Shown here: positions 9,194 to 34,023 of the stretch, one piece after another
Position numbering within the stretch: the first letter of the stretch is position 1
How the letters are laid out: each line of letters begins with the position of its first letter
From: Bacteroidetes bacterium GWA2_40_15
GTDB lineage: Bacteria; Bacteroidota; Bacteroidia; Bacteroidales; VadinHA17
Reading direction: 5' to 3'
Length of the DNA: 64,000 bases
NCBI GenBank assembly: GCA_001768195.1
Contig: MENI01000097.1
Location: 4,908-68,907 of the forward strand
Program-made: the position numbers and the translations under genes
Notes under the pieces: model-generated
Seen by the model: only the letters and a program-made list of their open reading frames with translations
Told to the model about the DNA's origin: nothing
The model's database searches: none

Positions 9194-9265
9194 TAGTCCA
9201 TAGGGGAATCGAACCCCTGTTACCAGGATGAAAACCTGACGTCCTAACCACTAGACGAATGGACC
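9194..9265 (-). tRNA. tRNA-Glu (anticodon TTC)
   Basis: The reverse complement GGTCCATTCGTCTAGTGGTTAGGACGTCAGGTTTTCATCCTGGTAACAGGGGTTCGATTCCCCTATGGACTA folds as a cloverleaf. The anticodon loop is TTTTCAT and the T-arm is GGTTCGATTCC. Closely parallels E. coli tRNA-Glu. Confidence 0.9.
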
Positions 9266-10899: not shown

Positions 10900-10982
10900 A
10901 TTTAAGTTTATTTAAACATATTCAATTATCATAGCTTAGTCCAATAATCCTGTAATTTCGAATCCATTAAAGTCTCCCGAAC

Positions 10983-11191: not shown

Positions 11192-11201
11192 TATTTTCAT
11201 A

Positions 11202-12068
11202 TTATACATCACAGATAAGCACGGATCTTCTCAGCGATTCCAGTTTATCCTTCATCGTGGGGACAAACTCATGCCCTACATACCCTTTATAGCCTGTTTT
11301 AACCAGTGCATTCATTATAGCAGGATAATACAGTTCCTGAGTTTCATCAAGTTCATGCCTGCCCGGCACACCTCCTGTATGGATATGCCCTATATACTGA
11401 CTGTATTTTGTGATAGTCTCAATAATATTGCCTTCCATTATCTGCATATGGTAAATATCGTATAAGAGCTTAAATCTTTCTGATCCTACCATTTCGCAAA
11501 GGGCTGCTCCCCAGCTGGTTCTGTCGCACTGATAATCCTCATGCTGATAACTGTTCAGCAGTTCAATTACAATTGTTACTTCATATTTTTCTGCCAAAGG
11601 CATAACCTGGCGTAATCCTCTTGCGCAGTTAAGGAGCCCCTCGTTATCATCCTGCCCCTCCCTGTTGCCTGAAAAACAGATAAGTGCAGGGACTCCGGCA
11701 GCAGCAGCTTTAGGGATCATTGCATTAAAGTCTGAAATTAGTTTCTCATGATTATACAACCGGTTGAATCCTTTGGGGATTCCCCAGTCAGTTGCATAAC
11801 CGACAGCACAGTTCAATCCTGCCTTCCGAACCACAGGCCAGTCTTTTTCCCCGAGAAGTTCAATTGATTCCAGTCCCATTTCCTTGCAGGCTTTTGCAAA
11901 CTGCTCAAGGGGAATGTCGTCATAACACCACTGGCTTACCGAATGACGTATATTCCCTTTAAGGGTAATGCTTTCCTCCTCTGTTCCGGCCAGAACATGG
12001 TTCAGTGGATTTACTGCGGTGACAACAGCTGCTCCGGCCATGCTTTCAATCATCTTTCTTCTTTTCAT
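11202..12068 (-). CDS. xylose-isomerase-like TIM-barrel protein (hydroxypyruvate isomerase/sugar phosphate isomerase family) with N-terminal export signal
   Basis: 288 aa. N-terminus MKRRKMIESMAGAAVVTAV. The body has the IELLN..H and GHIHT patterns of the AP_endonuc_2 fold. Confidence 0.65.
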   Translation of the reverse strand: MKRRKMIESMAGAAVVTAVNPLNHVLAGTEEESITLKGNIRHSVSQWCYDDIPLEQFAKACKEMGLESIELLGEKDWPVVRKAGLNCAVGYATDWGIPKGFNRLYNHEKLISDFNAMIPKAAAAGVPALICFSGNREGQDDNEGLLNCARGLRQVMPLAEKYEVTIVIELLNSYQHEDYQCDRTSWGAALCEMVGSERFKLLYDIYHMQIMEGNIIETITKYSQYIGHIHTGGVPGRHELDETQELYYPAIMNALVKTGYKGYVGHEFVPTMKDKLESLRRSVLICDV

Positions 12069-17687: not shown

Positions 17688-19115
17688 CTAAAGTCTTTCT
17701 ATTACAAAGATGTCGTGCCTGTCGAGATTCAGCCAGTATTTGATAGAGTTCTTCCTGACCAGTTCCCAGTAAATGTCACTGTCGAGGCCATAGACAAAGT
17801 TTATCTCCTTTAGTTCATTGCTTATGAGCGATGCAATTTCAGGTTTAAGGGTCAGCCTTATTTTTCGGTTCATATAAATGAATTCGGCTGAAGGTAATGC
17901 AGGCGATTCATGCTTAACAGTAAGCAGACCGTGGCCCGGTGTTGCTCCGGTACTTACCTGGAGACCATCATTCATGCAGCTCATTGGAGGTTCGGAGCCT
18001 GCTGATGAGGTGACCATAAATTCATCCACCCCTGTATTGAAATATTCTCTGGCCCTGATCCCCATTTTAACACCTATTATGGCAAAAACACCAAGATGCC
18101 TGTGTAACTCATTTGCGATCACTCCTGACACCCATTCATCCAAACCGTATTTGTTGATTATATCCGTTACAGATGGTTCAATATCTGCGAAATAGAATGA
18201 AGGAGTCAGCGGAAATTCCTTTATAACCTGATTTCTTTCAACCGTTTCCCCTTTAAGTATCCGCAGAGTCTTTTCCCTGATCAGGCCTATGTCGGCAGGC
18301 GATGCAACAATGCCTTTCGCTGTTGTTTCGGCATTGAATAATTGAGGGTAATGCATGTAAACTGGTATCGCATCATCAGTCATTCCAAATGAAAAATTGT
18401 GGTTCTTTGCCTTTTCTGATGTAAAAAATTCTGTTAATCTCTTTGCATACGCAGAATGTACAAATGAGATATTGTTGTTTAGGTCAGCGTCATATAATTT
18501 CATGTCGCCTGTTCCTTTTACTACGGTTACCTGGATGCCACTTCCGAAAATTTTACTGACAGCCTGAGCATCAATCTTATAGTTAAAGCCCTTTTTGTCA
18601 TTCAGCCCGTCAGCGCTCCATATGATCCCTTTTACCTTTTGCCTGAACTGAGGGATCTCCGCATAAGCAGAAGCTGCAGTTGAGAGGCTTCCGAGGCATA
18701 CCATACTGATTTTATTATTCTCTGTGCTCAGTATTTCGCGTATAACACCAATACATTCAGGGGCTATATCTCCTGATAATTGATTTTCCTCTCCCCATAC
18801 ATAGTTCAATGCCAATGGGAGATCAGGCGATCTGAATTTACATGAAGTGTTTATCCCTACAGGTATGCCCTCGTGGTAAAATCCATTCAGAAGGCTTTTT
18901 ACTTTTACCCAGGCGGCCTTTGCATTCAGCGCTCCGGGTGAAACGGTTATTGCAAGCACCCTGATGTCGGGCGAGGCAAGCAGCATCGAAATTGCTTTCA
19001 TGTCATCTACTCCTGCATCAGTGTCAACTATGATATAATGCCGGGGCTTCCACGGATGTGAAAAAGCAGTAACAGCAAAACCAAACGTCAGCAGCAGAAT
19101 AAATATCCTTTTCAT
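17688..19115 (-). CDS. secreted fusion protein: inosine-uridine nucleoside hydrolase-like N-domain plus FmdE-like C-domain
   Basis: The ATG at 19115 (the track TTG is at 19124) gives signal peptide MKRIFILLLTFGFAVTAFS. The IUNH signature is IIVDTDAGVDDMKAI. The C-terminal ~150 aa (HRHLGVFAIIGVKMGIRA..SCMNDGLQVSTGATPGHGLL) follow the FmdE-domain pattern. Confidence 0.6.
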   Translation of the reverse strand: MKRIFILLLTFGFAVTAFSHPWKPRHYIIVDTDAGVDDMKAISMLLASPDIRVLAITVSPGALNAKAAWVKVKSLLNGFYHEGIPVGINTSCKFRSPDLPLALNYVWGEENQLSGDIAPECIGVIREILSTENNKISMVCLGSLSTAASAYAEIPQFRQKVKGIIWSADGLNDKKGFNYKIDAQAVSKIFGSGIQVTVVKGTGDMKLYDADLNNNISFVHSAYAKRLTEFFTSEKAKNHNFSFGMTDDAIPVYMHYPQLFNAETTAKGIVASPADIGLIREKTLRILKGETVERNQVIKEFPLTPSFYFADIEPSVTDIINKYGLDEWVSGVIANELHRHLGVFAIIGVKMGIRAREYFNTGVDEFMVTSSAGSEPPMSCMNDGLQVSTGATPGHGLLTVKHESPALPSAEFIYMNRKIRLTLKPEIASLISNELKEINFVYGLDSDIYWELVRKNSIKYWLNLDRHDIFVIERL

Positions 19116-19133
19116 AAGTGACAAATTTCTTAT

Positions 19134-19851: not shown

Positions 19852-22122
19852 ATGGATAACACGCTGATGAAATACAATCTGATTTTTGCATTATTCTTGA
19901 TGACCCTCTTGCTCACCGCCTGTACAAAGCAACCTGCGAAGATGGACGGGCGCGGCAAACCTGGATTTCGCGTTCGTTCCGACTTTGCTGCGACGTTAAA
20001 CTCTGAAGTAGGATGGGCTGGTGCACTGAATGAGAATGTTCCCATTTACGCAGACCAACCTTTCCGCATTCGATTTGAATTGGAGCGCCCTGCAGGACCA
20101 ACTAGTGGTCGGCAATTCCGGCTTCAGTACAGACTAAATAGCGGAGTCTGGACCAATGTCGAGGCACACGACTTCCCCCACCCGGAACGCTATATTAGTA
20201 TGAATTTTAAACAACTTGAGGCCGGCACGCAACCTGAGGGATGGACTGTTGTGAAGGGCAATTCCTCAGAATTGGTCGTAGTGACCGATAACCATCAGAA
20301 CGCTCTACGAGCCAAATCGGATAAAGAGCCGCTTGTATGGCTCTTCACCCCACCTTGGGAGGCTACAGAAATTGCATCTCAATTCCGATTGGCCCCTGAA
20401 AATCACCGCGGGATCGCGTTCGTTGTGGGCTATGCCGATATCAGTAACTACTGTCTCGTACAGCTCGAGCCTACACCTGGCACGATACGTGTGAGCCATA
20501 TTATTGATGGGATAGAAAGGATTCTCGTCGAGAGAACCACCGTTATTACTACTGGCCAATGGCTCGAAATCGAAATTGAAACCGAAAACCGCAGGATTGA
20601 AATTAATTTCCAGAATGATATGCTGGAAATGGATGTCAAGCTTGATACTGATATCCCGCACTCAAAACTTGGATTTCAGGTTCCGTCGAATAGTACAATC
20701 GATTTTCGGAAATTCTCCTTCAATGGAGAAGCCAAAACCCCGCGAATCAGTATAGTTACCTGCCCAGCCTACGAGCACGGCATGTCAACCAACGATCTGT
20801 TGAAAGGTTCGGCCGCACCATTCCAGGCTGGCACTGGTATTAGTTTCGTCGAATTTACGCCTGTATGGAGCGGCGCGAATGTTCATGGCGAGTTCGAATG
20901 GCCGGTGGTCATTCGCCGGTTTGCTGATGGGGCAGTGACCAACAATGAAGGTGATACATTCGAATTTAGGATGATCGACACTGAAGGAACCGCACTGGGA
21001 AATGAACATAATCCAGCACTCCGCCTGTCCATCCCGCTCGGCCATGTTGGCGGGACATTCGTAGAAACCCCTGGCCGGATCGGCCCTTGGCAGGCCTCCA
21101 ACGGAAATCTTTACTTCATCATGGAACCGACAGAGACGGATAATATGTTCATGATGATAAAGTCCACGGACAACGGACGTACCTGGTACGAAATGGATGG
21201 AGCAAACCGCCCCAGGACAAATGACCTCGAATCGGTTGACTCGCGACTATTGGATAACACGATTCATATTATTCACCAAGTGACCCAATCTGTGCGTTAT
21301 CATACTTTCCGTACGTCTGATCATCCAACCCACCCTGATACCTGGGCTATCCGGGACGAGTTGGCTGGATCCGTGAACGCCATCGCCCAGAATGCGTCGA
21401 TGGTAGTGCGCTCAGACGGAAGCATAGTCGCGTTTTATCTTGGTACAGAAAAAATACATTACAGTATACGCTCGCCCGAAGGCACATGGAGCCAGGTAAA
21501 AACACTTGATCTCGACCTTCAACCCAACCAGGCTGGGCCACAAGCAGTGCTCGGTGCAAACGACATTATTCATCTCGCCTATTATGGAACCGATGGCACC
21601 ATCTGGTATCGACGGTTTCTTCCCGATGGTACCTTCACGTCAAGGCAACAGGTAGCGACAGGTGCCGGGACTTCAAGGGCGGAATATGGCGCAGTGCTTC
21701 CACTTCTCTTTATTCCCCACAAGAATGAGGTCGTCATTATTTATCGGCTCTTAAGCGGGAACCTTTGGGAACGACGGATTGTAAATGATGCCCCGCCTAC
21801 GGATGCAGTCATGGTAACCGATCTAAGGGTGGTCACCGACGCCGTCGACTCACATCAAGCCGGTGCCGATGCTGCCATCGACGGCGAGACAGTGTATGCG
21901 ATTTTCATTGCTGAGTCTTCCCGAAGCATCCTCAGCACGCACGACAATGGTGGATGGCAACCTCCGAAGCTCCGGGTCGACAACATACTTGGATCGTGGG
22001 TCCGTGGAAACGTATACACCCGCAAAGATGGCATGAGAGTATATGGATACATCTATGATGCGGGCTCCGATGGCGGTACAGGCATGAATCGATTCAGTGA
22101 GCTTGTATTGAACGGCAGATGA
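19852..22122 (+). CDS. lipoprotein with ConA/LamG-like (DUF1080-like) middle region and BNR/Asp-box beta-propeller-like C-terminal half
   Basis: 756 aa with lipobox LLLTAC. Canonical Asp-box STDNGRTW at nt 21163-21186. The middle string GWTVVKGN..ALRAK..GIAFVVGY is jelly-roll-like. G+C and CG-dinucleotide content are visibly higher than in the flanks. Confidence 0.55.
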   Translation: MDNTLMKYNLIFALFLMTLLLTACTKQPAKMDGRGKPGFRVRSDFAATLNSEVGWAGALNENVPIYADQPFRIRFELERPAGPTSGRQFRLQYRLNSGVWTNVEAHDFPHPERYISMNFKQLEAGTQPEGWTVVKGNSSELVVVTDNHQNALRAKSDKEPLVWLFTPPWEATEIASQFRLAPENHRGIAFVVGYADISNYCLVQLEPTPGTIRVSHIIDGIERILVERTTVITTGQWLEIEIETENRRIEINFQNDMLEMDVKLDTDIPHSKLGFQVPSNSTIDFRKFSFNGEAKTPRISIVTCPAYEHGMSTNDLLKGSAAPFQAGTGISFVEFTPVWSGANVHGEFEWPVVIRRFADGAVTNNEGDTFEFRMIDTEGTALGNEHNPALRLSIPLGHVGGTFVETPGRIGPWQASNGNLYFIMEPTETDNMFMMIKSTDNGRTWYEMDGANRPRTNDLESVDSRLLDNTIHIIHQVTQSVRYHTFRTSDHPTHPDTWAIRDELAGSVNAIAQNASMVVRSDGSIVAFYLGTEKIHYSIRSPEGTWSQVKTLDLDLQPNQAGPQAVLGANDIIHLAYYGTDGTIWYRRFLPDGTFTSRQQVATGAGTSRAEYGAVLPLLFIPHKNEVVIIYRLLSGNLWERRIVNDAPPTDAVMVTDLRVVTDAVDSHQAGADAAIDGETVYAIFIAESSRSILSTHDNGGWQPPKLRVDNILGSWVRGNVYTRKDGMRVYGYIYDAGSDGGTGMNRFSELVLNGR

Positions 22123-22742: not shown

Positions 22743-24269
22743 ATGAAGAGATTTCTCTTATGGTTTTTACCGGGACTGATTGTAGGCGTTTTGCTGATAC
22801 TTGGTGGGGGTAAGGCAATAGATACAACTTCATCAAATGACTTTTGCATGTCGTGCCATATTCACCCCCTGGCCGATGCAGCCTGGAAGAAGTCAGTTCA
22901 TTATGATACGAAGTCAGGATCGCGGATCGGATGTGTTGAGTGCCATCTTCCTCCTAAAGGCGATAATTATTTATGGGCAAAAGCTACTACAGGATTAAGG
23001 GATCTTTGGAGCTATTGGACCAAGGACTCTGCATCGTTTAACTGGGAAGAGCGCGGAAGACTTGAAATTGCCAGGGGGCATGTTTTTGAGAGCAGCTGTA
23101 CTAAATGTCATGTGAACCTTTTCCCTGCGAAGCTTACAAAGGAAGGGGAGAATGCACATCTCTATTATACCCAGACAAAAAAGACCGATGAGCTTCACTG
23201 TATAAATTGTCATCTGAATGCAGGGCATCATATTGAAGGGTATACCCATGGAAGCAATGCAACTTTCGGAGCTACTTCTGCTGCGCCAAAAGAGATCTTT
23301 ACCGTACCTGCAGAAGTATCAGAATTCATAAATTACACCGAGAAGATACCCGGCTCTTCAGTTGCTTTCAATATGGTGGCTGTTCCGGGAGGTAAATTCA
23401 GAATTGGCAGTCCTGATGATGAACCATTCAGGAAGCCTGACGAAGGACCGAAACGTGAGGTGGAGATCAGCCCTTTCTTTATGGCCGAAATTGAAGTCAC
23501 CTGGGATGAATATCTTGCATTCTATGTACAGACTGCTGCAGAAGGTCGAACGACTGATACTGAGGGAACAAGAAAAATAAAGTCTGATAAGACCGATGCA
23601 ATTTCCGGAGCAACTCCTCCCTACGGACAACCCGATCAGGGATGGGGAATGGGAAGACGCCCTGCTATATCCTTCTCTTATCATGCCGCAGAAACATATT
23701 GTAAATGGCTTAGTTCCGTTTCCGGGAAAACTTACCGTCTGCCTACTGAAGCGGAATGGGAATATGCCTGCAGGGCAGGTTCTGATGGCCCATATTTCTT
23801 CCCCGGAGATCCAAATAAATTTCAAAAGACAGGACTGAAGGCTAAGCTCTCCAAAAACGATACTGCAGTTATAAATACATACGTTGTATATAAAGCAAAC
23901 AGCTTATCCAAGACGCAACCACCCGACAGAGCAAAACCCAATCCTTTCGGCCTGAGAAACATGCCGGGAAATGTTGCCGAATTCTGCTCAGACTGGTATC
24001 AGCCCGATGCCTATTCACTATATCCTGATGGGGTTGTGAAGGATCCGAAAGGACCTGATAGCGGTGATGAACATGTTGTAAGAGGGGGTTCATTCCAGAG
24101 CACTGCAGATGTTCTGAGAAGTGCGGCCCGCGATTATACCCGTACAGAAGCATGGCTGAAAACCGACCCTCAGATGCCAAAGAGCATCTGGTGGTACTCC
24201 GACTGTTTCAATGTTGGTTTCAGGGTAGTATGCGAGTTTGATGAGAAAACAGGAAATGTTTCACCATGA
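22743..24269 (+). CDS. membrane-anchored NapC/NirT-type tetrahaem cytochrome c fused to an FGE/SUMF1 (formylglycine-generating-enzyme-like) domain
   Basis: N-terminal TM helix. Four CxxCH motifs (CMSCH, CVECH, CTKCH, CINCH) within the first ~170 aa. The C-terminal ~300 aa carry FGE-sulfatase patterns (MVAVPGGKFRIGS, YRLPTEAEWEYACRAG, GNVAEFCSDWY, RGGSF). Confidence 0.8.
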   Translation: MKRFLLWFLPGLIVGVLLILGGGKAIDTTSSNDFCMSCHIHPLADAAWKKSVHYDTKSGSRIGCVECHLPPKGDNYLWAKATTGLRDLWSYWTKDSASFNWEERGRLEIARGHVFESSCTKCHVNLFPAKLTKEGENAHLYYTQTKKTDELHCINCHLNAGHHIEGYTHGSNATFGATSAAPKEIFTVPAEVSEFINYTEKIPGSSVAFNMVAVPGGKFRIGSPDDEPFRKPDEGPKREVEISPFFMAEIEVTWDEYLAFYVQTAAEGRTTDTEGTRKIKSDKTDAISGATPPYGQPDQGWGMGRRPAISFSYHAAETYCKWLSSVSGKTYRLPTEAEWEYACRAGSDGPYFFPGDPNKFQKTGLKAKLSKNDTAVINTYVVYKANSLSKTQPPDRAKPNPFGLRNMPGNVAEFCSDWYQPDAYSLYPDGVVKDPKGPDSGDEHVVRGGSFQSTADVLRSAARDYTRTEAWLKTDPQMPKSIWWYSDCFNVGFRVVCEFDEKTGNVSP

Positions 24270-24397
24270 AACCACATCATTAAATAGTTAAAAAACCTTA
24301 ACCTTCAGTATAATATTATATTTTATTATTTATATTTACAGAGGTTCAACCAAATTGCAGACTAATAATTCTTTTCATAAAACCTAACCTTATCAGT

Positions 24398-25744
24398 ATG
24401 AAAAAATTCAGCATTTCAAGACGTAATTTTCTTGGTAAAGCAGCAACAGCAGGTGTAGCAGGTATTGTGGTTCCATCAATCATTGCAGGCTGTTCACGCG
24501 AAAGTAAAAAGGTCGTTGCTGTTCCGACAATGCTTGACCAGGCTCCTGACGGGCCGGTGTTAAAAGCAGGTGTGATAGGTTGCGGCGGACGTGGAACCGG
24601 CGCTGCTATTAACTTTCTGAGTGCCGGCCCGAGTCTGCAGGTTACTGCATTGGCCGACACATTCCAGGATCGGGTTGATTCCTGCCGGGAAGCTATAAAG
24701 AAAGAAAAGGGACAGGATGTTCCCATTGAAAATTGCTTTGTTGGTTTCGATGCTTACCAGAAAGTAATTGATTCAGGAGTTGATATTGTAATTCTTGCCA
24801 CTCCTCCATATTTTCGTCCTGAGCACCTTGCTGCCTGCGTCCAGGCCAAGAAGCATATCTTTGCTGAAAAACCTGTTTGTGTTGATCCTGTTGGCGCAAG
24901 GTCAGTCATGGCAACTGCCCAGAAAGCAAAAGGACTTGAACTGAGCATTGCAACAGGTACCCAGAGGAGGCATCAGCGCGACTATGTTGCTACTTGGCAG
25001 CAGGTTGCACAGGGACTCATCGGGGATATCGTTGGAGGAACAGTATACTGGAATGGCGGCAAGCTATGGCATCGCGATCCAAACCCGAAATGGAGCGAAA
25101 TGGAATACATGATACGTAACTGGGTGAACTGGACCTGGCTTTCCGGCGATCACATTGTGGAACAGCATGTTCATAACCTCGATGTACTGAACTGGTTTAC
25201 AGGGTCACACCCGGTTAAAGCTGTTGGTTTCGGATCAAGGCTCAGAAGGGTGACAGGTGATCAGTATGATAATTTCAGTATAGACTATACCTTTGAAAAT
25301 GGAATTCATGCTCACAGCATGTGCAGGCAGATAAACGGCTGTGTCAACAACGTATCCGAAAGATTACAGGGAGCAAAAGGCTCCACAAACTGCAGGAACG
25401 TGGTTCTCGACTTAACCGGAAATGAACTCTGGAAGTACGGGTATCCGCTTGATAAAGACAGCAAACCAACCAACAATGTAAGCGTTGATCCTTATGTTCA
25501 GGAACATATCAACCTGGTTACCGCCATTCGCAGCGGTCAGGCATTCAACGAACTGGAAAACACCGCCATCTCAACTATGGTTGGCATTATGGGACGCATA
25601 TCGGCCTATACAGGCAAGGAGACAACTTACGAAGAGATGATGAACTCCGACCTTAAGCTTGGGCCTGAAGTATTTGATTTTGGACCTGTTAACATCCCTA
25701 AGGAAGTACCGGTCGCCGGTCTTCCATACGTTCCCGGGCAGTAA
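24398..25744 (+). CDS. Tat-exported Gfo/Idh/MocA-family oxidoreductase (probable lipoprotein)
   Basis: Twin-arginine leader SRRNFLGKAATAGVAG followed by IIAGCS. Rossmann motif VIGCGGRGTG and the EKP motif (FAEKPV). Confidence 0.8.
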   Translation: MKKFSISRRNFLGKAATAGVAGIVVPSIIAGCSRESKKVVAVPTMLDQAPDGPVLKAGVIGCGGRGTGAAINFLSAGPSLQVTALADTFQDRVDSCREAIKKEKGQDVPIENCFVGFDAYQKVIDSGVDIVILATPPYFRPEHLAACVQAKKHIFAEKPVCVDPVGARSVMATAQKAKGLELSIATGTQRRHQRDYVATWQQVAQGLIGDIVGGTVYWNGGKLWHRDPNPKWSEMEYMIRNWVNWTWLSGDHIVEQHVHNLDVLNWFTGSHPVKAVGFGSRLRRVTGDQYDNFSIDYTFENGIHAHSMCRQINGCVNNVSERLQGAKGSTNCRNVVLDLTGNELWKYGYPLDKDSKPTNNVSVDPYVQEHINLVTAIRSGQAFNELENTAISTMVGIMGRISAYTGKETTYEEMMNSDLKLGPEVFDFGPVNIPKEVPVAGLPYVPGQ

Positions 25745-25786
25745 CAAACAGTCGGTTTTAGATGATATAACCAATAAGATTCTGTT

Positions 25787-26737
25787 ATGATAGATTCAAG
25801 AAGGAATTTCATAAAAAGAGCCACATTAGCAGGAGCCGCCATTTTGGCTGCTCCTGCAGTTTTTGGATCCCAGGACGGGAAGAAGAAAACCAAAGCAAAA
25901 ACCCCCGATGCGGTTACACCATTCAAACTGAAGTATGCACCTTCAGTAGGGATGTTCCGCGAACATGCAGGCAATGATATTATCGATAATATCAAATTCT
26001 GTAATGACATGGGTTTCAGAGCCATGTTCGATAACGGGCTTATGGGTCGTTCTCCTGAAGACCAGGTAAAGTATCTGAGTGAGCTGCAGCGGTTAGGGAT
26101 GGACTTTGGGCCATTCGTCCTTTACGCCGATTTTTCAGTTACCTCATTTGTACTTAACAAGCCTGAGACACGTGAAATGCTCATCAATAAGATGAAAGAG
26201 GGTGTTGAGGTTTCAAAAAGGACCGGGGCAAAGCAGGCTCTTGTTGTTCCCGGAAGATATGATGAAAAGCTTGACCGCGATTTTCAGACTGCTAACGTGA
26301 TCGATAACCTGAGGTACTGTTGTGATATCGTTGAACCGGCAGGACTGACAATTGTACTGGAACCTCTCAATACCCTGAGGGATCATCCGGGTCTGTTCCT
26401 TACAGGAGTGCCGCAGACTTATTCAATTTGCAGGGCAGTGAACCGCCCCTCATGCAAAATAAACCTGGATTTATATCATCAGCAGATAACAGAGGGAAAT
26501 CTGATTCCGAACCTGGATGCTGCATGGAGCGAGATAGGAGCATTGCATTGTGGCGATAATCCTGGCAGGATGGAGCCAACAACCGGAGAGATAAACTATA
26601 AGAATGTTTTTAAGTTTATCTATCAGAAAGGCTACCAGGGAGTTATATGTATGGAGCACGGCATGAAAAACAGGACAAAGGAGGGAGAGGCAAGAGTTAT
26701 AGAGGCTTACCGTGAATGCGATAGTTTCGAAGTGTAA
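25787..26737 (+). CDS. Tat-signal xylose-isomerase-like TIM-barrel protein (sugar phosphate isomerase/epimerase family)
   Basis: Leader SRRNFIKRATLAGAAILAAPAVFG. The body resembles the hydroxypyruvate isomerase/AP_endonuc_2 fold (VLEPLN.., DLYHQQ). Confidence 0.7.
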   Translation: MIDSRRNFIKRATLAGAAILAAPAVFGSQDGKKKTKAKTPDAVTPFKLKYAPSVGMFREHAGNDIIDNIKFCNDMGFRAMFDNGLMGRSPEDQVKYLSELQRLGMDFGPFVLYADFSVTSFVLNKPETREMLINKMKEGVEVSKRTGAKQALVVPGRYDEKLDRDFQTANVIDNLRYCCDIVEPAGLTIVLEPLNTLRDHPGLFLTGVPQTYSICRAVNRPSCKINLDLYHQQITEGNLIPNLDAAWSEIGALHCGDNPGRMEPTTGEINYKNVFKFIYQKGYQGVICMEHGMKNRTKEGEARVIEAYRECDSFEV

Positions 26738-26758
26738 CTGATAACATTAAAACTAAAA

Positions 26759-27877
26759 ATGAAAAAGATTTTATATTTCGGACTGGTGCTGTTATTAGCA
26801 GTCTTGTTTTCAGATGCTGCCAATTGCCAGCTTTCCCGGCTCTATGTCGGAAAATATGCTAAGGAAGGCGAAAAAGGGCTTCACATAATTGATGTTGATC
26901 TTTCGAAGGGGACCTTTACCACAGTTTCAGAGTCGGATGCAGGTACAAATCCATCTTACTTTTGTATCTCAAAGAAAAGAAGCCTCATTTATGCTGTAAA
27001 TGAAGTCGGCAGGATAAAAGATGTGCGGGCGGGAAGCGTTTCTACTCTCCGCTTCGATGCAAAAAACGGGAAAACTGAAAAACTGAATGAAATTTCAGTT
27101 CCTAACGGAGGACCATGCTATATCTCTTTATCTGCTGATGAAGGCTTCCTCCTGGTAGCCAATTACGGAGGTGGTTCTGTAGCAGTTGTAAGGCTTGATG
27201 CAAACGGAATCCCCTTTGAAGTGAGCGATACAATAATATATAAAGGAGAGGAGGGCACTCGCTCCCGTGGCCATATGATAGCTCCCGGTTTAGGTGGGAA
27301 GAAGATATATGTGACTGACCTCGGCCTCGACAGGGTTGCAGTATATGACCTTGATCCAGTTTCAGGAAAGCTGAAGCTTATAAATAATGGATATGCAAAG
27401 CTTGCAAAAGGAGCAGGCCCGCGTCATTTTGCTTTCGGGAAAGACGGCACCAGAATGTATGTAATTAATGAGCTTAATTCAACCATGACTGTTTTTAATG
27501 TCGGTAACTCAGGGGAACTGAATGAAATACAGACACTTTCCACTCTCCCTGAAGGCTTCTCAGGAAAGAATTTCTGTGCCGATGTCCATGTAGCCGGGAA
27601 TGGTAAATATGTTTATGGTTCAAACAGAGGTCATAACTCTATCGTGACATATAAGGTCGGACCTGAAGGGAAACTCACTCTTGTTGGTCACACTTCATGC
27701 GGAGGAGACTGGCCGCGTAATTTTGTTCTCGATCCTTCAGGAAAATACCTTATAGCCGGAAATCAAAACTCCGGAAATATTTCACTTTTCAGCCTTGATA
27801 AAAAAACAGGACTTCCTCAGCTTCCATCAAAGGATTTTAAGATAGAATCCCCTTCATGCCTGAAGTTTATTGAGTAA
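26759..27877 (+). CDS. secreted 7-bladed beta-propeller lactonase (6-phosphogluconolactonase/YbhE-like family)
   Basis: Signal peptide, then repeated motifs NPSYF.., VANYGGGSVAV, GAGPRHFAF and GSNRGHNSI typical of Pfam Lactonase. Confidence 0.75.
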   Translation: MKKILYFGLVLLLAVLFSDAANCQLSRLYVGKYAKEGEKGLHIIDVDLSKGTFTTVSESDAGTNPSYFCISKKRSLIYAVNEVGRIKDVRAGSVSTLRFDAKNGKTEKLNEISVPNGGPCYISLSADEGFLLVANYGGGSVAVVRLDANGIPFEVSDTIIYKGEEGTRSRGHMIAPGLGGKKIYVTDLGLDRVAVYDLDPVSGKLKLINNGYAKLAKGAGPRHFAFGKDGTRMYVINELNSTMTVFNVGNSGELNEIQTLSTLPEGFSGKNFCADVHVAGNGKYVYGSNRGHNSIVTYKVGPEGKLTLVGHTSCGGDWPRNFVLDPSGKYLIAGNQNSGNISLFSLDKKTGLPQLPSKDFKIESPSCLKFIE

Positions 27878-27886
27878 TTAACCTGT

Positions 27887-27906
27887 CCCCCTTCTGCAAG
27901 AGGGGG
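27887..27906 (+). terminator. intra-cluster GC hairpin (ccccct-tctgca-agaggggg)
   Basis: Read from the sequence between the lactonase stop and the next start. No T-run, so it could be an attenuator or a REP-like element. Confidence 0.25.
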
Positions 27907-27923
27907 TATGATACATATTAGAT

Positions 27924-30407
27924 ATGCAATCAAGATGCTGTATATCAGTTATATTGTTGCTTTTGATAAGTTTTTCATCTTTTGCACAGGAGATAACCCA
28001 TTCCCGTGATGAAAAGGCAGTTGTTATTGCCGACAAATCAGGTAACCTTCAGATAGAAATTGATTACAGTAAAGGCTGCAGGATCAGCAGACTGATAGTT
28101 AAAGGGAGGAATACTCTTTCTGCTTCAGGAGCCTTTACTTCGGTAAAAACAGCGGATAATTTATATACCTCGCCTGAGTCATCTGCCCGGGCAAAGGTTG
28201 TGAAACGTAAAAACGGCCTTACAATACGCAATATTATCTTCGGAGATGAAGAGATGACTGTTTCAGAGACCTGGGAATTCGCAATTGCCGGCAGCACTAT
28301 TGAATGGAAGATAAACAGGCAGTACAGAAATCGCGGGACACTCGATGATATGGCCATGCCTGCCTGGCACTTTGAAAAACTCAACACATGGAAGGCAGGT
28401 ATCCTGAACACAGGTGGCGTGGTATGGTGTAAATATTTTGAGAATCTGAATGACACATATGGAGTACATACCAACGGAGTAACATTCTGGGAAACTGAAT
28501 CAGGCAATGGATTAAGGATTGAAGCAGATTCTCAGACAGGAGGTCACATTGCCTGCTCATTCAGCCATGCTCAGGATGAAGAGTTTAAACTCACTCAGTA
28601 TCTTACAACTGATGAACTGGGGCAACGTTACAACCTGAGCAGGTTCGTAAGTAAAAAGAAGGACGTATTTGCTCCCTTCAATGTGGATATGGGTGTTGCA
28701 TCGGTTATACTTAATATCAGCTATGTAGACTATGATAAGGAGTATGACAGGGGAACTCTGCCCGGAATAGATGAAGTGGCGGTCAGGGAACTTTTAAACA
28801 CTACAGGACGATATGGCGTAGTTGACAGAAACATTACAGGAGGCAACGGATGGGTAACCAACTGGAAGTGCCTGCATGAACCATTCTTTGCACAAACAGG
28901 AATGGCAATAAATGATAAAAACTATCTTAGAAATCTCGCTTCAACACTCGATCAGGAACGGGACCAGGCAATTGAAGCCGATGGCAGGGTGCTGGCACGA
29001 TGGCACGACATTCCTGAAGCTCAGAAGAGCAATTACAATTTCAAAACAGGCTACTACGACTGCCCCTGGGGATACACTATTGATGCCCAGCCCTCGCAGG
29101 TGATAAATACAGTTGAGCTGTTTCATCAGACAGGTGACCTGAACTGGCTCAGATCACATAAGGAGAATTGTGAAAAGGTTCTGAACTGGCTTATTAAAAG
29201 AGATTCCAACAATAACGGGATCTTTGAAATGCTTAATGATAATACCGGAGAAAACAAATGCAGCGACTGGATAGATGTTGTATGGGCAAGCTTCGAGAAC
29301 GCTTTTGTTAATGCACAGATGTATGAGGCGCTGAATCTTTGGTCCGGGTGCGAATCTATCCTGGGAGATACGGGTAAAGCAGCCTACTATTCAAGGATCG
29401 CCGACAGGTTGAAAGTGGCTTTCAATAAACCTGTGCAATACGGAGGGTTCTGGTACCCTGAAAAAAGGCAATATATCTACTGGAGGGATAAGGATGGATC
29501 GCTGCATGGTGATAACCTGGTAACTCCTGTAAATTTTGCAGCCATAGCTTTTGGGCTTTGTGAAGATCCCGTACGAATAAAGGAGATACTTGACCAGATC
29601 GAGGAAAAGACTTCTGCCGAGAAGCTGTTTCACTGGCCCCTTTGCTTTGAATCATTCAGGGAAGAGGAGGTCTACAAGCCTGTAAACTGGCCGTTTCCAA
29701 ACTATGAGAATGGGGATATTTTTCCAACATGGGGTTATCTCGGTGTGCGATCGTATGTGAAATACGATAAAACTATTGCTCTAAAATATATTAAGAATCT
29801 TCTGCAACAGTATAATAAGGACGGGCTTTCCTCGCAGCGTTTCAGCAGGACTACTCAGCAAGGAAAGGGTTCTGATATTCTTGCCGGTTCAAGCACAACA
29901 ATTGCTGCTCTGTACAGGGATATTTATGGAATAAGGCCTAAATGGAACAGGTTCGGTATTGAACCCAATATGCTAAAAGAGCTTAATGGAACGGAATTCA
30001 GTTATACATTTACCGGAAAGAAATATAATGTCAGACTGAATGAGGATAAATATGAACTCTCCAATGACGATTTCACTATTACTGCCGGGCAGAGCTTTGG
30101 AGTCAGTACTGATGGAAATAACCTGCTATATTACCCGGGGAATAAAGATATTGCCCGGTTGTCAGTAACCAAAAGTATTATTGACCCGGTTAAAGTAGAT
30201 ATAGCACAGTGGGATGAAGGGATAATGGAGTGGTCGATTCTGTCGCCAGGGATCTTCAGGTTCATTGTATCGGGTCTTAAGCCAGGCAGCCAGTACAGGC
30301 TGAAGACAGGAGCTGATGAAGAGAAGCTTGTAATTTCCGGTTCAGATGGCAATCTTAATTTTGAATATACATGTCAGGATATGGTAAAATTCACTCTGAT
30401 CAGGTAG
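27924..30407 (+). CDS. secreted 827-aa protein with an (alpha/alpha)6-barrel glycoside-hydrolase-like C-terminal half
   Basis: Signal peptide. The central and C-terminal strings SDWIDVVWASFENAFVNAQMYEALNLW and TPVNFAAIAFG resemble GDE_C/GH63/GH78-type six-hairpin enzymes. The family is not resolved by eye. Confidence 0.45.
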   Translation: MQSRCCISVILLLLISFSSFAQEITHSRDEKAVVIADKSGNLQIEIDYSKGCRISRLIVKGRNTLSASGAFTSVKTADNLYTSPESSARAKVVKRKNGLTIRNIIFGDEEMTVSETWEFAIAGSTIEWKINRQYRNRGTLDDMAMPAWHFEKLNTWKAGILNTGGVVWCKYFENLNDTYGVHTNGVTFWETESGNGLRIEADSQTGGHIACSFSHAQDEEFKLTQYLTTDELGQRYNLSRFVSKKKDVFAPFNVDMGVASVILNISYVDYDKEYDRGTLPGIDEVAVRELLNTTGRYGVVDRNITGGNGWVTNWKCLHEPFFAQTGMAINDKNYLRNLASTLDQERDQAIEADGRVLARWHDIPEAQKSNYNFKTGYYDCPWGYTIDAQPSQVINTVELFHQTGDLNWLRSHKENCEKVLNWLIKRDSNNNGIFEMLNDNTGENKCSDWIDVVWASFENAFVNAQMYEALNLWSGCESILGDTGKAAYYSRIADRLKVAFNKPVQYGGFWYPEKRQYIYWRDKDGSLHGDNLVTPVNFAAIAFGLCEDPVRIKEILDQIEEKTSAEKLFHWPLCFESFREEEVYKPVNWPFPNYENGDIFPTWGYLGVRSYVKYDKTIALKYIKNLLQQYNKDGLSSQRFSRTTQQGKGSDILAGSSTTIAALYRDIYGIRPKWNRFGIEPNMLKELNGTEFSYTFTGKKYNVRLNEDKYELSNDDFTITAGQSFGVSTDGNNLLYYPGNKDIARLSVTKSIIDPVKVDIAQWDEGIMEWSILSPGIFRFIVSGLKPGSQYRLKTGADEEKLVISGSDGNLNFEYTCQDMVKFTLIR

Positions 30408-30440
30408 ATTTGTATCCAGATAATAAATACTTTAATCTGC

Positions 30441-31703
30441 ATGCAACTTATCAACATCAGTCTTTCAGGAATAGTAAGGGTAAAGAGAAAATTTGTGCTT
30501 GCTTTGTTCCTGCTTTTCATTATAGTCTTGCCTGTTATAACCGGCTTCAGCCCTGGGAAAAGGAAACCGTATAAAAACTATGTGCTTCTCGTTTCCCTTG
30601 ATGCTTTCAGGTGGGACTATCCTGATTTGTACAACACTCCCAACCTTGACATACTGGGAAACGACGGAGTCAGAGCGGAAAGGATGATCTCCTCTTTTCC
30701 CACAAATACATTTCCAAATCATTATTCCATAGCAACAGGCCTCTATCCGGACCATCACGGACTAATAAGCAACAGTTTCCCGGCTCCCGACCTTGGGCTG
30801 TTTTACCGGATAGGCGACAGGGAAGCAGTTGAGAATCCGGACTTCTACGGAGGAGAACCAATGTGGGTTACTGCTGAAAAGCAGGGCGTTAAAGCTGCTT
30901 CATTCTTCTGGGTAGGATCGGAAGCACCTGTCGGAGGAATGCATCCGACATACTGGAAGAAGTATGACGAATCAGTGGGTTATGGTGAGAGGATAGATAC
31001 TATTGTAAAATGGCTCGGTTATCCTGAGCAGAACAGGCCTGAACTTTTAACTCTCTACCTTGATGAACCTGATGCAACCAGCCATGATTTCGGTCCTGTT
31101 TCAGCGGAAACCGGGGAAGTTGTGATGAGACTTGACAGTCTGATCGGAGCGTTGCGGAACAAACTTAGTTCTCTGCCTTACGGCGACAGAATAAACCTGA
31201 TAGTGATATCTGATCATGGTATGGCTTCGGTATCGCCTGAAAAGTATATTAACCTGAAATCGCTTGTTCCCGACAGAATGATTGCATCTATATCAGGAGG
31301 TAATCCTGTATATCTGATAAATCCTGCAGAAGGGAAAGCCGACAGTTTACTTCTTCTTATAAACAGAGCATCGGGTGTAAGAGCCTGGAGGAAATCAGAA
31401 CTTCCTTCAAAATGGCACTATGGTACCCATCCAAGGATCCCTGAGATTGTTGTTGTTGCCGACAGCTCGTGGAGCATCGGAACCCGGCCTTCTGCATTCT
31501 CAAACAAAGGTGCTCATGGTTACGATAATTATAATCCCGATCTCTTTTCGATTTTTTATGCAGCAGGTCCTTCATTTAAAAAGAATTACAGTTTCAGCGA
31601 GCTTAAGAATACAGATGTTTACAACCTTGTCTGTCGTATCCTCAATATTAAGCCCGCCGCTAATGATGGCAACCGAAAAAATATCAGGAAGTTGCTCAGA
31701 TAA
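30441..31703 (+). CDS. ectonucleotide pyrophosphatase/phosphodiesterase (NPP, alkaline-phosphatase superfamily), membrane-anchored
   Basis: LVSLDAFRWDY, FPTNTFPNHYSIATGLYPDHHGL and ISDHGM motifs. Confidence 0.8.
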   Translation: MQLINISLSGIVRVKRKFVLALFLLFIIVLPVITGFSPGKRKPYKNYVLLVSLDAFRWDYPDLYNTPNLDILGNDGVRAERMISSFPTNTFPNHYSIATGLYPDHHGLISNSFPAPDLGLFYRIGDREAVENPDFYGGEPMWVTAEKQGVKAASFFWVGSEAPVGGMHPTYWKKYDESVGYGERIDTIVKWLGYPEQNRPELLTLYLDEPDATSHDFGPVSAETGEVVMRLDSLIGALRNKLSSLPYGDRINLIVISDHGMASVSPEKYINLKSLVPDRMIASISGGNPVYLINPAEGKADSLLLLINRASGVRAWRKSELPSKWHYGTHPRIPEIVVVADSSWSIGTRPSAFSNKGAHGYDNYNPDLFSIFYAAGPSFKKNYSFSELKNTDVYNLVCRILNIKPAANDGNRKNIRKLLR

Positions 31704-31732
31704 TTTAATTTTGAACCTATATATTCATATCC

Positions 31733-33229
31733 ATGAAAGAATTTATCCTGGCTCTCGACCAGGGAACAACAAGTTCAAGGGCGATTATCTTTGACAAAGA
31801 CGGTCGTCCGGTTGCAACAGCGCAAAAGGAATTCAGGCAATTTTTCCCAAAGCCGGGCTGGGTTGAACACGACCCTGATGAAATCTGGTCAACACAGGCA
31901 GGCGTTGCACTTGAGGCAATAACAAAAGCAAGGCTTTCCGGTAAAAATATTAAAGCAATAGGCATCACCAATCAGCGGGAGACAACAGTTGTCTGGAACA
32001 GAAAAACTGGCAATCCTGTTTATAAAGCCATCGTATGGCAGGACAGGCGCACTGCTGATTTCTGCGACAAGCTTAAGAAAGAGGGATATGACAAAAAGAT
32101 CCTTAAGAAGACAGGGTTGATAATTGATGCATATTTTTCTGCTACCAAAGTAAAGTGGATTCTGGATAATGTAAAGGGTGCACAAAAGCTTGCAGAAGAC
32201 GGAAAACTGGCTTTTGGGACAATCGACTCCTGGCTTGTATGGAAACTGACTGGTGGCCGACTTCATATTACAGATGTTTCCAATGCTTCAAGAACAATGC
32301 TTTACAATATTCATACACTCGAATGGGACAGTGAACTTCTGAAGATTTTCAATATTCCTTCAGCCATTCTTCCTGAAGTCAGATCATCAAGCGAGGTATA
32401 TGGAACCACCTCAGGACTATTTGAAACGGAAATTCCTGTGGCAGGCATTGCCGGCGACCAGCAGGCTGCATTGTTCGGACAGATGTGCATAGAACCGGGA
32501 ATGGTTAAGAACACCTACGGCACTGGATGCTTTATGATGATGAATACCGGTTCCAAACCTGTCGAATCAAAGAACAGGCTGCTGACAACTATTGCATGGA
32601 AAATTGACACGGAAACCATTTATGCACTCGAGGGCAGTATTTTCATTGGTGGAGCCGTTGTGCAATGGTTGAGGGATGGTCTTGGAATCATAAAAAGATC
32701 AGCCGATGTTGAGAAACTTGCAGCGAATGTGGAAGACAGCGGGGGAGTATACTTTGTACCTGCATTTGCAGGTCTTGGAGCGCCCTACTGGAACCAGCAT
32801 GCAAGGGGTACGATTGTAGGGCTTACCAGAGGAACTGCAGCAGCTCATATTGCAAGGGCAGCGCTCGACAGCATAGCCTACCAGACACTTGAAGTGCTGC
32901 TTGCAATGCAAAAGGATTCGGGTCTGAAAATACCTGAGCTAAGAGTGGATGGCGGGGCTACTGTGAATGACAGATTAATGCAGTTCCAGTCTGACATCCT
33001 CCAGGCAAAGGTTGTGCGTCCTGAAATTACTCAAACGACAGCTCTTGGCGCTGCTTATCTTGCAGGACTGGCAGTAAAATACTGGGGAAGTATTAATGAA
33101 ATAAAGAAACAGTGGGCAATAGACAAGGCCTTTACTCCCTCCGTTAAAGCGAAGGATACAAAAGTGCTTATTGACGGATGGCACAGGGCAGTTAAAGCAG
33201 CACAGGCCTGGGCGGGAGAGGGGAGATAA
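31733..33229 (+). CDS. glpK: glycerol kinase
   Basis: 498 aa. [24 protein letters not shown] and [15 protein letters not shown] are canonical GlpK strings. Confidence 0.95.
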
Positions 33230-33318: not shown

Positions 33319-34023
33319 ATGAACGCATTTTTTGCAGAATTTTTCGGAACCGCTATGATAATTGTTTTTGGAGGAGGAGTAGTGTCAAATGTTCTTCTTG
33401 CAGGGACAAAAGGAAACAACAGCGGCTGGATCGTGATAACCTTCGGATGGGCCGTCGGGGTATTTACAGGTGTGCTTATAGCAGCACCTGTAAGCGGTGC
33501 TCATCTGAATCCTGCTGTTACTCTGGCGCTTGTGCTGGCAGGTAAGTTCTCGATCTCACTTATGCCCCTTTATGTATGTGCCCAGCTGCTGGGAGCAATG
33601 TTCGGGGCATTTCTGGTCTGGGTTGCTTATAAAAAGCATTTTGATGCCACCCGGGATGGTGATCTAAAACTTGCTGTATTCTGCACTTCTCCAAATATCA
33701 GGAGTTATTGGTATAATATACTGACAGAGGTAATCGGCACATATGTACTTGCACTGGCCGTACTGTATATGGCTGAACCTGAAGTGGGACTGGGTTCGCT
33801 GAATGCCCTTCCCGTTTCTATAGTTGTCCTGGGGCTTGGCCTTTCCCTTGGCGGTCCGACAGGATATGCAATAAACCCGGCCCGTGATCTTGGCCCAAGA
33901 ATAATGCATTTTTTCCTTCCAATCCCTGATAAAAGAGACAGTGACTGGAAATATTCATGGGTACCGGTTGTCGGGCCACTCATTGGGGCATCCCTGGCTG
34001 CAATAATGTTTGATATGTTTTGA
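33319..34023 (+). CDS. glpF: glycerol uptake facilitator (MIP/aquaglyceroporin)
   Basis: Two NPA boxes (SGAHLNPAVT and YAINPARDLGPR). Confidence 0.9.
   Translation: MNAFFAEFFGTAMIIVFGGGVVSNVLLAGTKGNNSGWIVITFGWAVGVFTGVLIAAPVSGAHLNPAVTLALVLAGKFSISLMPLYVCAQLLGAMFGAFLVWVAYKKHFDATRDGDLKLAVFCTSPNIRSYWYNILTEVIGTYVLALAVLYMAEPEVGLGSLNALPVSIVVLGLGLSLGGPTGYAINPARDLGPRIMHFFLPIPDKRDSDWKYSWVPVVGPLIGASLAAIMFDMF

Follow-up and report, generated by a model that had tools for sequence, protein, structure and literature searches.

A conserved pair of a tetraheme cytochrome-FGE fusion and a Tat-exported Gfo/Idh/MocA protein in Bacteroidales: a candidate cytochrome-wired periplasmic carbohydrate dehydrogenase

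The window analysed here is a stretch of 64,000 nucleotides from Bacteroidetes bacterium GWA2_40_15 (contig MENI01000097.1, positions 4,908 to 68,907), and it carries a run of six same-strand genes, g1 to g6, whose products all have N-terminal export features (Table 1). A first-pass annotation of this DNA had proposed that the six genes form one module for the respiratory-linked oxidation of a periplasmic sugar or glycoside. Comparison with related loci, 160 of which were found to contain g1, leads to a smaller unit. The conserved core consists of g1, encoding a tetraheme NapC/NirT-type cytochrome fused to a domain resembling the formylglycine-generating enzyme (FGE), and g2, encoding a Gfo/Idh/MocA protein exported by the twin-arginine translocation (Tat) pathway, often together with a Tat-exported TIM barrel; outside the g1-g2 core, the six-gene module is a lineage-specific mosaic. 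It is probable that the g1-g2 pair connects the oxidation of sugars in the periplasm with the quinone pool. More specifically, we read it as the two-gene core of a cytochrome-wired periplasmic carbohydrate dehydrogenase, with variable accessories and with electrons passing to menaquinone, and we give this reading a probability of roughly 0.45.

Within the window's own family, 80 loci anchored on g1 (75-87% identical) were compared, each from a different GTDB species and all from uncultured Bacteroidales; a flank of 10 kb was taken per locus, and the open reading frames (ORFs) were clustered across loci. Adjacency inside this family proves little, since its gene order is shared by ancestry; upstream of g1, the synteny includes a class I fumarase gene and a divergent gene for a secreted IU-nucleosidase/FmdE protein. 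Therefore, distant relatives were searched. A search of 1.8 billion cluster representatives yielded full-length NapC-FGE fusions of 38-51% identity (P0363, P0365, P0366 and P0421), and the alignment of these fusions was used as a profile against metagenome contigs, which gave 80 loci. None of the distant loci, in which the cytochrome-FGE protein is 51-65% identical to g1 and the GC content is 31-52%, keeps the fumarase/IU-nucleosidase synteny. In 28 of the 30 distant loci that could be evaluated, the cytochrome-FGE gene is directly followed on its own strand by a g2-type Gfo gene (48-63% identical); the two exceptions have a split or small ORF in between. When the loci are clustered at 70% identity, the pair is present in 13/13 evaluable clusters, with a median gap of 37 nt. 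Only the g2 type takes part in this association, since the other Tat-Gfo paralogues in the distant loci form a separate sequence cluster. The co-conservation of g1 and g2 thus far exceeds what shared ancestry of gene order would give. Consequently, the functional link between cytochrome and Gfo protein proposed by the first-pass annotation gains support for these two genes, but the other members of the proposed module are not conserved with them: about one third of the distant loci have a Tat TIM barrel, g3-type or other, no more than a few kb away, on either side of the pair and in either orientation, and no g4-type lactonase, NPP or glp gene was found in any locus with a cytochrome less than 66% identical to g1. 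The g4 lactonase is restricted to the window's family. The NapC-FGE fusion itself is present in 248 or more GTDB species, and many metagenome contigs that encode it come from sediments, fens and digesters.

One distant lineage is well sampled and has the order MsrBA, cytochrome-FGE, Gfo, a second Tat-Gfo with a ThuB-type C-terminal domain, ThuA, GT2 and a TPR membrane protein. In 14 loci (L089, L091, L098, L116, L132 and others), the gene immediately before the one for cytochrome-FGE encodes an MsrB-MsrA fusion with a signal peptide; this Msr is periplasmic and lacks a thioredoxin domain, and its gene adjoins that of a quinol-linked cytochrome.

The arrangement inside the window's family is more variable, and Gfo adjoins g1 in 37 of 89 loci. 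In the first configuration (32 loci), the order is cytochrome-FGE, Gfo, TIM barrel, lactonase, glpD, glpK and glpF, with the g5-type 827-aa gene (GH827) and the NPP gene present before glpD in some cases. Among the 26 such loci with at least 9 kb of downstream sequence, the TIM barrel is found in 26, glpK (after lactonase or NPP) in 24, the lactonase in 23, glpD in 23, NPP in ten and GH827 in four. The exact six-gene order is present in one, so that the six genes do not hold as a conserved unit. In addition, genes for MFS, BNR-propeller and isochorismatase proteins are inserted at varying points of the run. The second configuration is seen in 24 loci, representing 24 of the 62 evaluable related species, and here g1 is followed by SusC, SusD and two or three opposite-strand genes. 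The insert between g1 and Gfo is about 9.5 kb long, and its opposite-strand genes are of the DUF6057 and PD40/TolB-like types (e.g. L171 775-9475, L035, L038 and L039). At least 14 of these loci end, about 10.5-11 kb downstream, in the N-terminal part of a g2 orthologue. The full arrangement was recovered in L171, where cytochrome-FGE, SusC and SusD on one strand are followed by DUF6057, PD40 and a small ORF on the other and then by Gfo and TIM barrel on the first. The SusC/SusD inserts (24 species), and the ThuA and ThuB-like Gfo genes beside the pair in the distant lineage, point to carbohydrate substrates.

Part of this picture would be expected if there were no module at all, that is, if the genes were neighbours by descent and their shared export signals reflected the commonness of exported enzymes in Bacteroidota. 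The rarity of the exact order, the sporadic presence of GH827 and NPP, the MFS, BNR, isochorismatase-type and SusCD genes inside the run, the unrelated contexts in which g5 homologues occur and the uninformative promoter and terminator scans described below are all consistent with such an account. For g5 and g6 it appears to be true. However, it is contradicted for g1-g2 by the distant loci, and for g2-g3 by the TIM barrel, which is constant after g2 in the family and recurs in distant lineages. As an explanation of the whole run, we consider it the least probable of those weighed here.

The cytochrome half of g1 matches NapC/NirT PF03264 at 88.3 bits (gathering score 24.1) over residues 6-164, and the C-terminal half matches FGE-sulfatase PF03781 at 153 bits (23.3). 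A transmembrane (TM) segment at residues 5-22 is followed by the four haem motifs CMSCH, CVECH, CTKCH and CINCH, and the TM helix and the four CXXCH motifs are invariant among five fusions that are 38-51% identical. Also invariant in five divergent fusions is a K-x6-D pair (KATTGLRD), which was placed by region, not by structural alignment, near CymA Lys91; its counterpart in NrfH is presumably K82/D89. Lys91 of CymA is required for the interaction with quinone (PMC2762525). At the level of defined subfamilies, g1 lies below all NCBIfam equivalog cut-offs, including those of TorC (66.7 bits vs 478), NrfH (64.7 vs 134) and napC_nirT (51.1 vs 311), and its best NCBIfam match, PvdO NF051459, reaches 114 bits against a cut-off of 500. 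In its TM anchor, four c-type haems and, putatively, Lys/Asp near haem 1, g1 is like TorC, CymA, NrfH, the cM552 of Nitrosomonas and ImoA of Sideroxydans, the last two of which are proposed quinone reductases. Members of the NapC/NirT family exchange electrons with menaquinone or menaquinol. The extra C-terminal domain of TorC is monohaem and docks TorA, and the partners in these systems are molybdo- or haem-reductases, whereas the C-terminal domain of g1 is FGE-like and its partner is a Gfo protein.

Both genuine FGEs and PvdO can be aligned with the FGE-like domain of g1 (E about 1e-24; PvdO structure 5hha, E 4e-24). The alignment to the FGE of T. curvata stops at GGSFQS, where the FGE reads GGSFLC, so that the first catalytic Cys is replaced. 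The loop that follows GGSFQS (STADVLRSAARDY) contains no Cys in g1, and no Cys is conserved there across the five divergent fusions; the position of the second catalytic Cys was judged in this way from the composition of the loop and not from a direct alignment. Because the first catalytic Cys is replaced and the loop has no conserved Cys, the domain is, on this evidence, predicted not to be a formylglycine-generating enzyme. It would in this respect resemble PvdO and PorK/GldK, which have the FGE/SUMF1 fold without FGE chemistry; PvdO, a periplasmic protein, has been implicated in an oxidation. To our knowledge, no member of the PvdO/PorK/GldK type is fused to a multihaem cytochrome, and a search of the literature found no paper on the NapC-FGE fusion or on a pairing of or link between Gfo and cytochrome. 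We also considered a Ser-type maturation of sulfatases, in which the FGE-like domain would bind the peptide and the Gfo protein would oxidise Ser to formylglycine. This was rejected: neither the window nor the conserved neighbourhoods contain a sulfatase, and the accessory genes point to sugars.

The product of g2 contains both Gfo/Idh/MocA domains (PF01408, 54.7 bits; PF22725, 34.7 bits). Its score against the Tat model TIGR01409 is 22.2 bits, above the cut-off of 16.7, and its N-terminus carries SRRNFL and the lipobox IAGC. The RR pair and the lipobox Cys32 are kept in at least 95% of 20 non-redundant orthologues. The motif GxGxRGxGA, Asp87 and EKP are conserved at the same level in orthologues of 48-93% identity, and G61/G63/G66, D87 and E157-K158-P159 are invariant. 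Asp87 follows strand beta-2, a position that points to NAD as the cofactor and not to NADP. Judged by its matches, g2 appears remote from every characterised Gfo/Idh/MocA member. Against the BT2158-family model NF058561 it scores 23.6 bits (cut-off 750), it matches the P2B11 glucuronide 3-dehydrogenase (8tdi) and DgpA at just E 1e-5 to 1e-10, and it matches the aldose-aldose oxidoreductase of Caulobacter (5a02) at E 1e-4, or 5e-9 by profile. Glucose-fructose oxidoreductase (GFOR) is not among its PDB matches at E<=1e-3, which include sugar 3-ketoreductases and 1,5-anhydrofructose reductase.

The mechanism that we propose is as follows. After export by Tat in folded form, presumably loaded with NAD(H), g2 would oxidise a periplasmic carbohydrate, which may be an aldose, a glycoside or a cyclitol. 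The sealed-in cofactor would be re-oxidised via g1, because it cannot exchange in the periplasm, and the FGE-like domain would serve as a docking or transfer module. Electrons would then enter the menaquinone pool and, in such anaerobes, end at fumarate reductase. Meanwhile, g3 would isomerise or epimerise the carbonyl product or subject it to an elimination. In the window's family, g4 would hydrolyse a lactone product, and GntP could take up the aldonate and pass it to the enzymes of the Weimberg-like genes. Together with glpK and glpF, g6 may form a phosphodiester/glycerol module. From gene content, motifs and co-conservation we infer that g1 and g2 are coupled, physically or by electron transfer, as well as the direction of the coupling and the kind of substrate. 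Published work on the Tat-Gfo enzymes BT2158 and AL3 describes tightly bound, non-exchanging NAD and the need for an external re-oxidant (PMC8121099; bioRxiv 10.1101/2024.03.25.586180).

Several points weigh against this reading. In the family, co-transcription of the pair is not obligatory: in about 40% of the related species opposite-strand genes lie between g1 and g2, which cannot share a transcript there. We know of no NAD(P)-dependent Gfo enzyme that gives electrons to a c-type haem, and the literature search found no precedent for electron transfer from Gfo to haem. A flavin or quinone normally mediates between a hydride donor and one-electron acceptors, and the conserved core encodes no such mediator. 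In the FGE-like domain, no His or Cys that would hint at a redox metal site is invariant among the five fusions. The known Tat-Gfo systems are redox-neutral and have no cytochrome. Among solved structures, inositol dehydrogenases come closest to g2 (4n54 and 4mkx, E 5e-16 with the orthologue profile), all with weak scores, and the AlphaFold model of g2, made from a shallow alignment (>=83% identity), has a pLDDT of 41 and is unusable. Scans for sigma-70 promoters and terminators found nothing above chance, and the window-wide count of the Bacteroidetes -7 motif TAnnTTTG is at or below the shuffled expectation. Finally, quinol oxidation is the canonical direction for NapC/NirT/CymA/NrfH proteins (PMC2762525, PMC3340143). 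The bolder claim that a Tat-exported nicotinamide Gfo enzyme is re-oxidised (or reduced) directly by a NapC/NirT tetraheme cytochrome through the fused FGE-like domain, and so represents a new class of respiratory periplasmic dehydrogenase in Bacteroidota, is put forward tentatively and seems to us doubtful.

The last point raises the alternative that the electrons run in reverse. In that case g1 would be a menaquinol dehydrogenase feeding g2, and g2 would work as a periplasmic terminal reductase for keto-sugars or other carbonyls, so that the pair would amount to a small reductase of anaerobic respiration. The same co-conservation of g1 and g2 and the canonical behaviour of the cytochrome family both fit this direction; the source habitats in the record titles (fens, sediments and digesters) are anoxic, and many Gfo members are ketoreductases, including those among the PDB matches of g2. 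However, the step from haem to NAD has the same mismatch between one- and two-electron chemistry. In addition, the lactonase and the aldonate-degrading set fit an oxidative route better, and the SusCD, ThuA and ThuB-like neighbours suggest the catabolism of imported sugars. Reverse flow is therefore, in our view, quite improbable.

A second alternative is that the chemistry is redox-neutral, as in BT2156-BT2160 of Bacteroides thetaiotaomicron and AL1-AL5 of Alistipes (glycoside cleavage) or in GFOR and aldose-aldose oxidoreductase (aldose disproportionation); g2 would cycle its NAD between two sugars, g3 would be the lyase or isomerase, and g1 would be a bystander. The pairing of a Tat-Gfo enzyme with a TIM barrel is published for such systems, and the bound NAD is re-oxidised there by a 3-keto-sugar (bioRxiv 10.1101/2024.03.25.586180; PMC8121099). 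Like the window, these loci belong to Bacteroidota and encode a periplasmic Tat-Gfo enzyme, with NAD that is non-exchangeable there and presumably also in g2, and an exported TIM barrel (PMC8121099; bioRxiv 10.1101/2024.03.25.586180). The weak matches of g2 to 8tdi, DgpA and 5a02, the match of g3 to a 3-keto-D-glucoside 4-epimerase (6wn6, E 8e-8) and the retention of g1 where the insert parts it from Gfo can also be explained in this way. What the alternative leaves unexplained is the adjacency of g1 and then g2 in all 13 divergent clusters. The likeness to BT2156-2160 that the first-pass annotation had noted extends to the Tat-Gfo beside a Tat TIM barrel, but not to the sequences: g2 is far below the BT2158-family cut-off, and g3 matches no BT2156-type model, being closest to Hyi/OtnI-type isomerases. 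The BT2156-2160 locus moreover has a second Gfo gene, a SusR-type regulator and a DUF1080 gene; the window lacks the first two and has no convincing DUF1080 gene. Its only candidate for DUF1080 (the 3-keto-disaccharide hydrolase family) is a 756-aa lipoprotein found in this species only, which scores 20.9 bits against a gathering score of 26.8. Finally, the BT2156-2160 pathway is redox-neutral and without a cytochrome, whereas the most conserved partner in the window's core is the tetraheme fusion. We judge a redox-neutral cycle with g1 as a bystander to be unlikely.

Other known systems give a similar mixture of likeness and difference. GFOR of Zymomonas mobilis with its gluconolactonase, and the aldose-aldose oxidoreductase of Caulobacter, resemble the cluster in having a Tat-exported Gfo enzyme and a lactonase in the same compartment (PMC4628093). 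They have no cytochrome partner, however, and g2 is a lipoprotein and not GFOR-like by sequence, with a lactonase in one family only. The glucoside 3-dehydrogenase (G3DH) of Agrobacterium, LacABC of Caulobacter and Gcd with PpgL of Pseudomonas feed periplasmic sugar oxidation into the respiratory chain, as is proposed here, and a PpgL-like lactonase is a further likeness. These dehydrogenases use FAD (GMC type) or PQQ and can act as one-electron donors, whereas g2 is of the nicotinamide type, and no FAD/GMC domain was found in the six window proteins by Pfam or NCBIfam. The cytochrome of the G3DH, LacABC and Gcd systems is a soluble or subunit cytochrome c, whereas g1 is a membrane-bound NapC/NirT fusion. 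The cluster would thus work like known periplasmic sugar-oxidising systems yet belongs to none of them, and the pair of components is unprecedented.

Returning to the reading of the pair as an oxidative dehydrogenase core, the two genes that follow it would handle the product. The g3 protein matches AP_endonuc_2 PF01261 at 104 bits and TIGR01409 at 21.3 bits; its Tat signal contains SRRNF, and RRxF is present in 48/48 orthologues. Its best NCBIfam matches, hydroxypyruvate isomerase TIGR03234 (116 bits vs 353) and the 2-oxo-tetronate isomerase OtnI NF043033 (111 vs 325), are both below the cut-off, and its PDB matches include 3ngf (E 2e-23) and YgbM. A second xylose-isomerase-like TIM barrel is encoded elsewhere in the window, with an N-terminus (MKRRKMI...) that is possibly a Tat signal; it adjoins the gene of a 488-aa DUF6298/apiosidase-like protein, and many related loci keep the two genes together upstream. 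For g4, the match to Lactonase PF10282 (326 bits vs 21.7) covers model positions 2-344 of 344, and the score against the 6-phosphogluconolactonase equivalog is 159.5 bits (cut-off 370). Its PDB matches include 3scy of B. fragilis, 3fgb of B. thetaiotaomicron and the periplasmic gluconolactonase PpgL of P. aeruginosa (6igb, E 3e-44), in agreement with the earlier proposal of a gluconolactonase-like periplasmic partner. The lactonase suggests oxidation at C1 to an aldonolactone in the window's family.

The genes for aldonate uptake and catabolism that the first-pass annotation had recognised are likewise present, with IlvD/Edd, FAH-family, GntP and aldehyde dehydrogenase genes at 46.9-54.2 kb. 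By its Pfam content, the set resembles the lower Weimberg route from aldonate to 2-oxoglutarate, with its own dehydrogenase and lactonase absent. It is a possible cytoplasmic sink for an aldonate made by the cluster, and the link across the 15 kb between them is one that we infer. Convergent with this set, a homologue of LarA-type lactate racemase lies beside a KdgT 2-keto-3-deoxygluconate permease gene.

The product of g6 matches NPP PF01663 at 287 bits over positions 1-342 of 342 and has the Thr nucleophile motif TFPNH. It is closer to the nucleotide pyrophosphatase of Xanthomonas (2gsn, E 2.5e-81) than to ENPP6 (just 1.6e-42). A role as an ENPP6-like glycerophosphodiesterase that feeds GlpF and GlpK was considered and is weakened by the finding that its closest relatives are nucleotide pyrophosphatases. 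In the relatives, NPP is always immediately upstream of glpD-glpK-glpF, where glpD encodes a GlpD-like FAD glycerol-3-phosphate dehydrogenase and stands between lactonase or NPP and glpK (e.g. L169/L170 13958-15517). The window itself has no glpD, and NPP leads straight to glpK (31703-31733). From this constant position just upstream of the glp genes, g6 may be part of their module and not of the oxidation core.

These genes bear on a third alternative, the periplasmic oxidation of a cyclitol. Here g2 would be an inositol-type dehydrogenase, g3 would resemble an inosose isomerase or dehydratase, and NPP would supply the system by cleaving the phosphodiester of head groups of the glycerophospho-inositol type, while GlpF and GlpK would receive the glycerol. 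The profile of g2 does match inositol dehydrogenases best, as mentioned above, and IolG (TIGR04380) is its top NCBIfam match; g3 matches IolO and IolI weakly, and NPP, glpD, glpK and glpF lie downstream of the trio in many relatives. However, all these scores are far under the family cut-offs (66.7 bits vs 355 for IolG), NPP is nearest to nucleotide pyrophosphatases and is present in a minority of the relatives, the lactonase would have no role, and the linkage to glp, seen in one family only, may be plain synteny. A cyclitol pathway of this kind is thus very unlikely.

The remaining member, g5, has a single borderline Pfam signal (Bac_rhamnosid6H, 24.7 bits vs 24.5) and no PDB sequence match at E<=1. 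In its AlphaFold model (pLDDT 86), a beta-sandwich precedes an (alpha/alpha)6 barrel and beta domains follow it, and Foldseek retrieved GH94, GH63, GH65 and GH78 structures at E 1e-17 to 1e-11 with TM-scores of just 0.35-0.40. The model is that of a fold like six-hairpin glycoside hydrolases and phosphorylases, and by sequence g5 belongs to no defined family. Homologues of g5 (55-58% identity) occur in unrelated contexts in Dysgonomonas, Mucilaginibacter and Bacteroides. In Mucilaginibacter sp. SMC90 (L172, 7146-11329), the homologue lies between a PhyH-family dioxygenase gene and a xylose-isomerase-like TIM barrel gene, beside SusC/SusD, which is a second, independent pairing of a GH-like protein with a TIM barrel. 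Both g5 and g6 look like lineage-specific passengers, because of their low frequency in the first configuration.

In the window itself, the six plus-strand ORFs have exactly the coordinates given in the first-pass annotation, and the short same-strand spacing was borne out (gaps of 128, 42, 21, 46 and 33 nt). Each of the six domain calls was confirmed by Pfam/NCBIfam. The export features were present as described, with localisation judged from motifs only; each of the six proteins has a hydrophobic segment at its N-terminus and nothing TM-like further on. What did not stand is the boundary of the six-gene, all-exported cluster. The same-strand run goes on past g6 with glpK (gap 29 nt), glpF (89 nt) and a 167-aa ORF (122 nt), so that the boundary is arbitrary, a choice of the reader and not set by the DNA; glpK and glpF are a separate glycerol module. 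Copies of TAnnTTTG on the plus strand at 30405-30412 (g5-g6 gap) and 31706-31713 (g6-glpK gap), with none upstream of g1 or g2, hint at internal promoters, and at the chance-level count of the motif they do not serve as evidence. Identical proteins are found in GCA_001768485.1, GCA_001769225.1 and other metagenome-assembled genomes, and g5 is recorded under Bacteroidetes bacterium GWE2_41_25.

Upstream of g1, a gene for a secreted fusion of IU-nucleoside hydrolase and FmdE is divergent from g1 and is found beside it in 50 of the 80 related species. Between the two lies the gene of the 756-aa lipoprotein, on the same strand as g1. It looks like a recent insertion, because it has no homologue in the 160 related loci and its region has a GC content of 0.507, compared with about 0.42 around it. 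A role of this protein as a DUF1080 3-keto-glycoside lyase was considered, but it is not counted as belonging to the system: in addition to its sub-threshold score and its absence from the related loci, it has no PDB sequence relative. An Rfam scan of the window gave a tRNA as its sole hit, and the 620-nt gap upstream of g1 is empty. Further downstream, an 804-aa fusion of SulP (with STAS) and beta-carbonic anhydrase is probably a transporter of the bicarbonate type.

Table 1. Positions in the window of the six-gene run, the adjoining glycerol genes and other features discussed in the text
Feature	Positions	Strand	Remark
tRNA	9194-9265		sole Rfam hit
DUF6298/apiosidase-like protein and second TIM barrel (pair)	9433-12068	-	
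Second xylose-isomerase-like TIM barrel	11202-12068	-	possible Tat signal
IU-nucleoside hydrolase + FmdE fusion, secreted	17688-19124	-	divergent from g1
756-aa lipoprotein	19852-22122	+	
g1, tetraheme NapC/NirT-type cytochrome + FGE-like fusion	22743-24269	+	core
g2, Gfo/Idh/MocA, Tat-exported lipoprotein, probably NAD-type	24398-25744	+	core, partner of g1
g3, Tat xylose-isomerase-like TIM barrel	25787-26737	+	frequent third component
g4, Sec-signal 7-bladed beta-propeller lactonase	26759-27877	+	accessory limited to the window's family
g5, secreted 827-aa GH/phosphorylase-like protein (GH827)	27924-30407	+	apparent lineage-specific passenger
g6, membrane-anchored NPP	30441-31703	+	variable
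glpK, glycerol kinase, cytoplasmic	31733-33229	+	NF000756, 829 bits, above cut-off
glpF, glycerol facilitator	33319-34023	+	MIP TIGR00861, 181 bits, above cut-off
SulP (with STAS) + beta-carbonic anhydrase fusion, 804 aa	37551-39965	+	
Aldonate-type set (Pfam): UxaA/GarD-type dehydratase, IlvD/Edd dehydratase, FAH-family, GntP permease, aldehyde dehydrogenase	46869-54174	+	
LarA-type lactate racemase homologue and KdgT permease	54195-56462	-	convergent with the aldonate-type set

Since the six-gene module is mostly a mosaic, annotations should be transferred on the basis of the core of two or three genes. Tat-Gfo enzymes are very abundant in Bacteroidota and in the PVC group, and they have recently been tied to non-Koshland glycan breakdown, where the re-oxidation of the trapped NAD is an explicit open point. 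The g1-g2 core is widespread and uncharacterised, and it makes cofactor recycling in periplasmic Gfo enzymes directly testable. If our reading is true, the fusion now annotated merely as 'SUMF1/EgtB/PvdO family nonheme iron enzyme' would gain a function, and anaerobic Bacteroidales could conserve energy directly from the oxidation of sugars in the periplasm. On the bolder claim, the FGE fold would gain a role in redox docking or electron transfer, and sealed-in NAD would be recycled without a second sugar.

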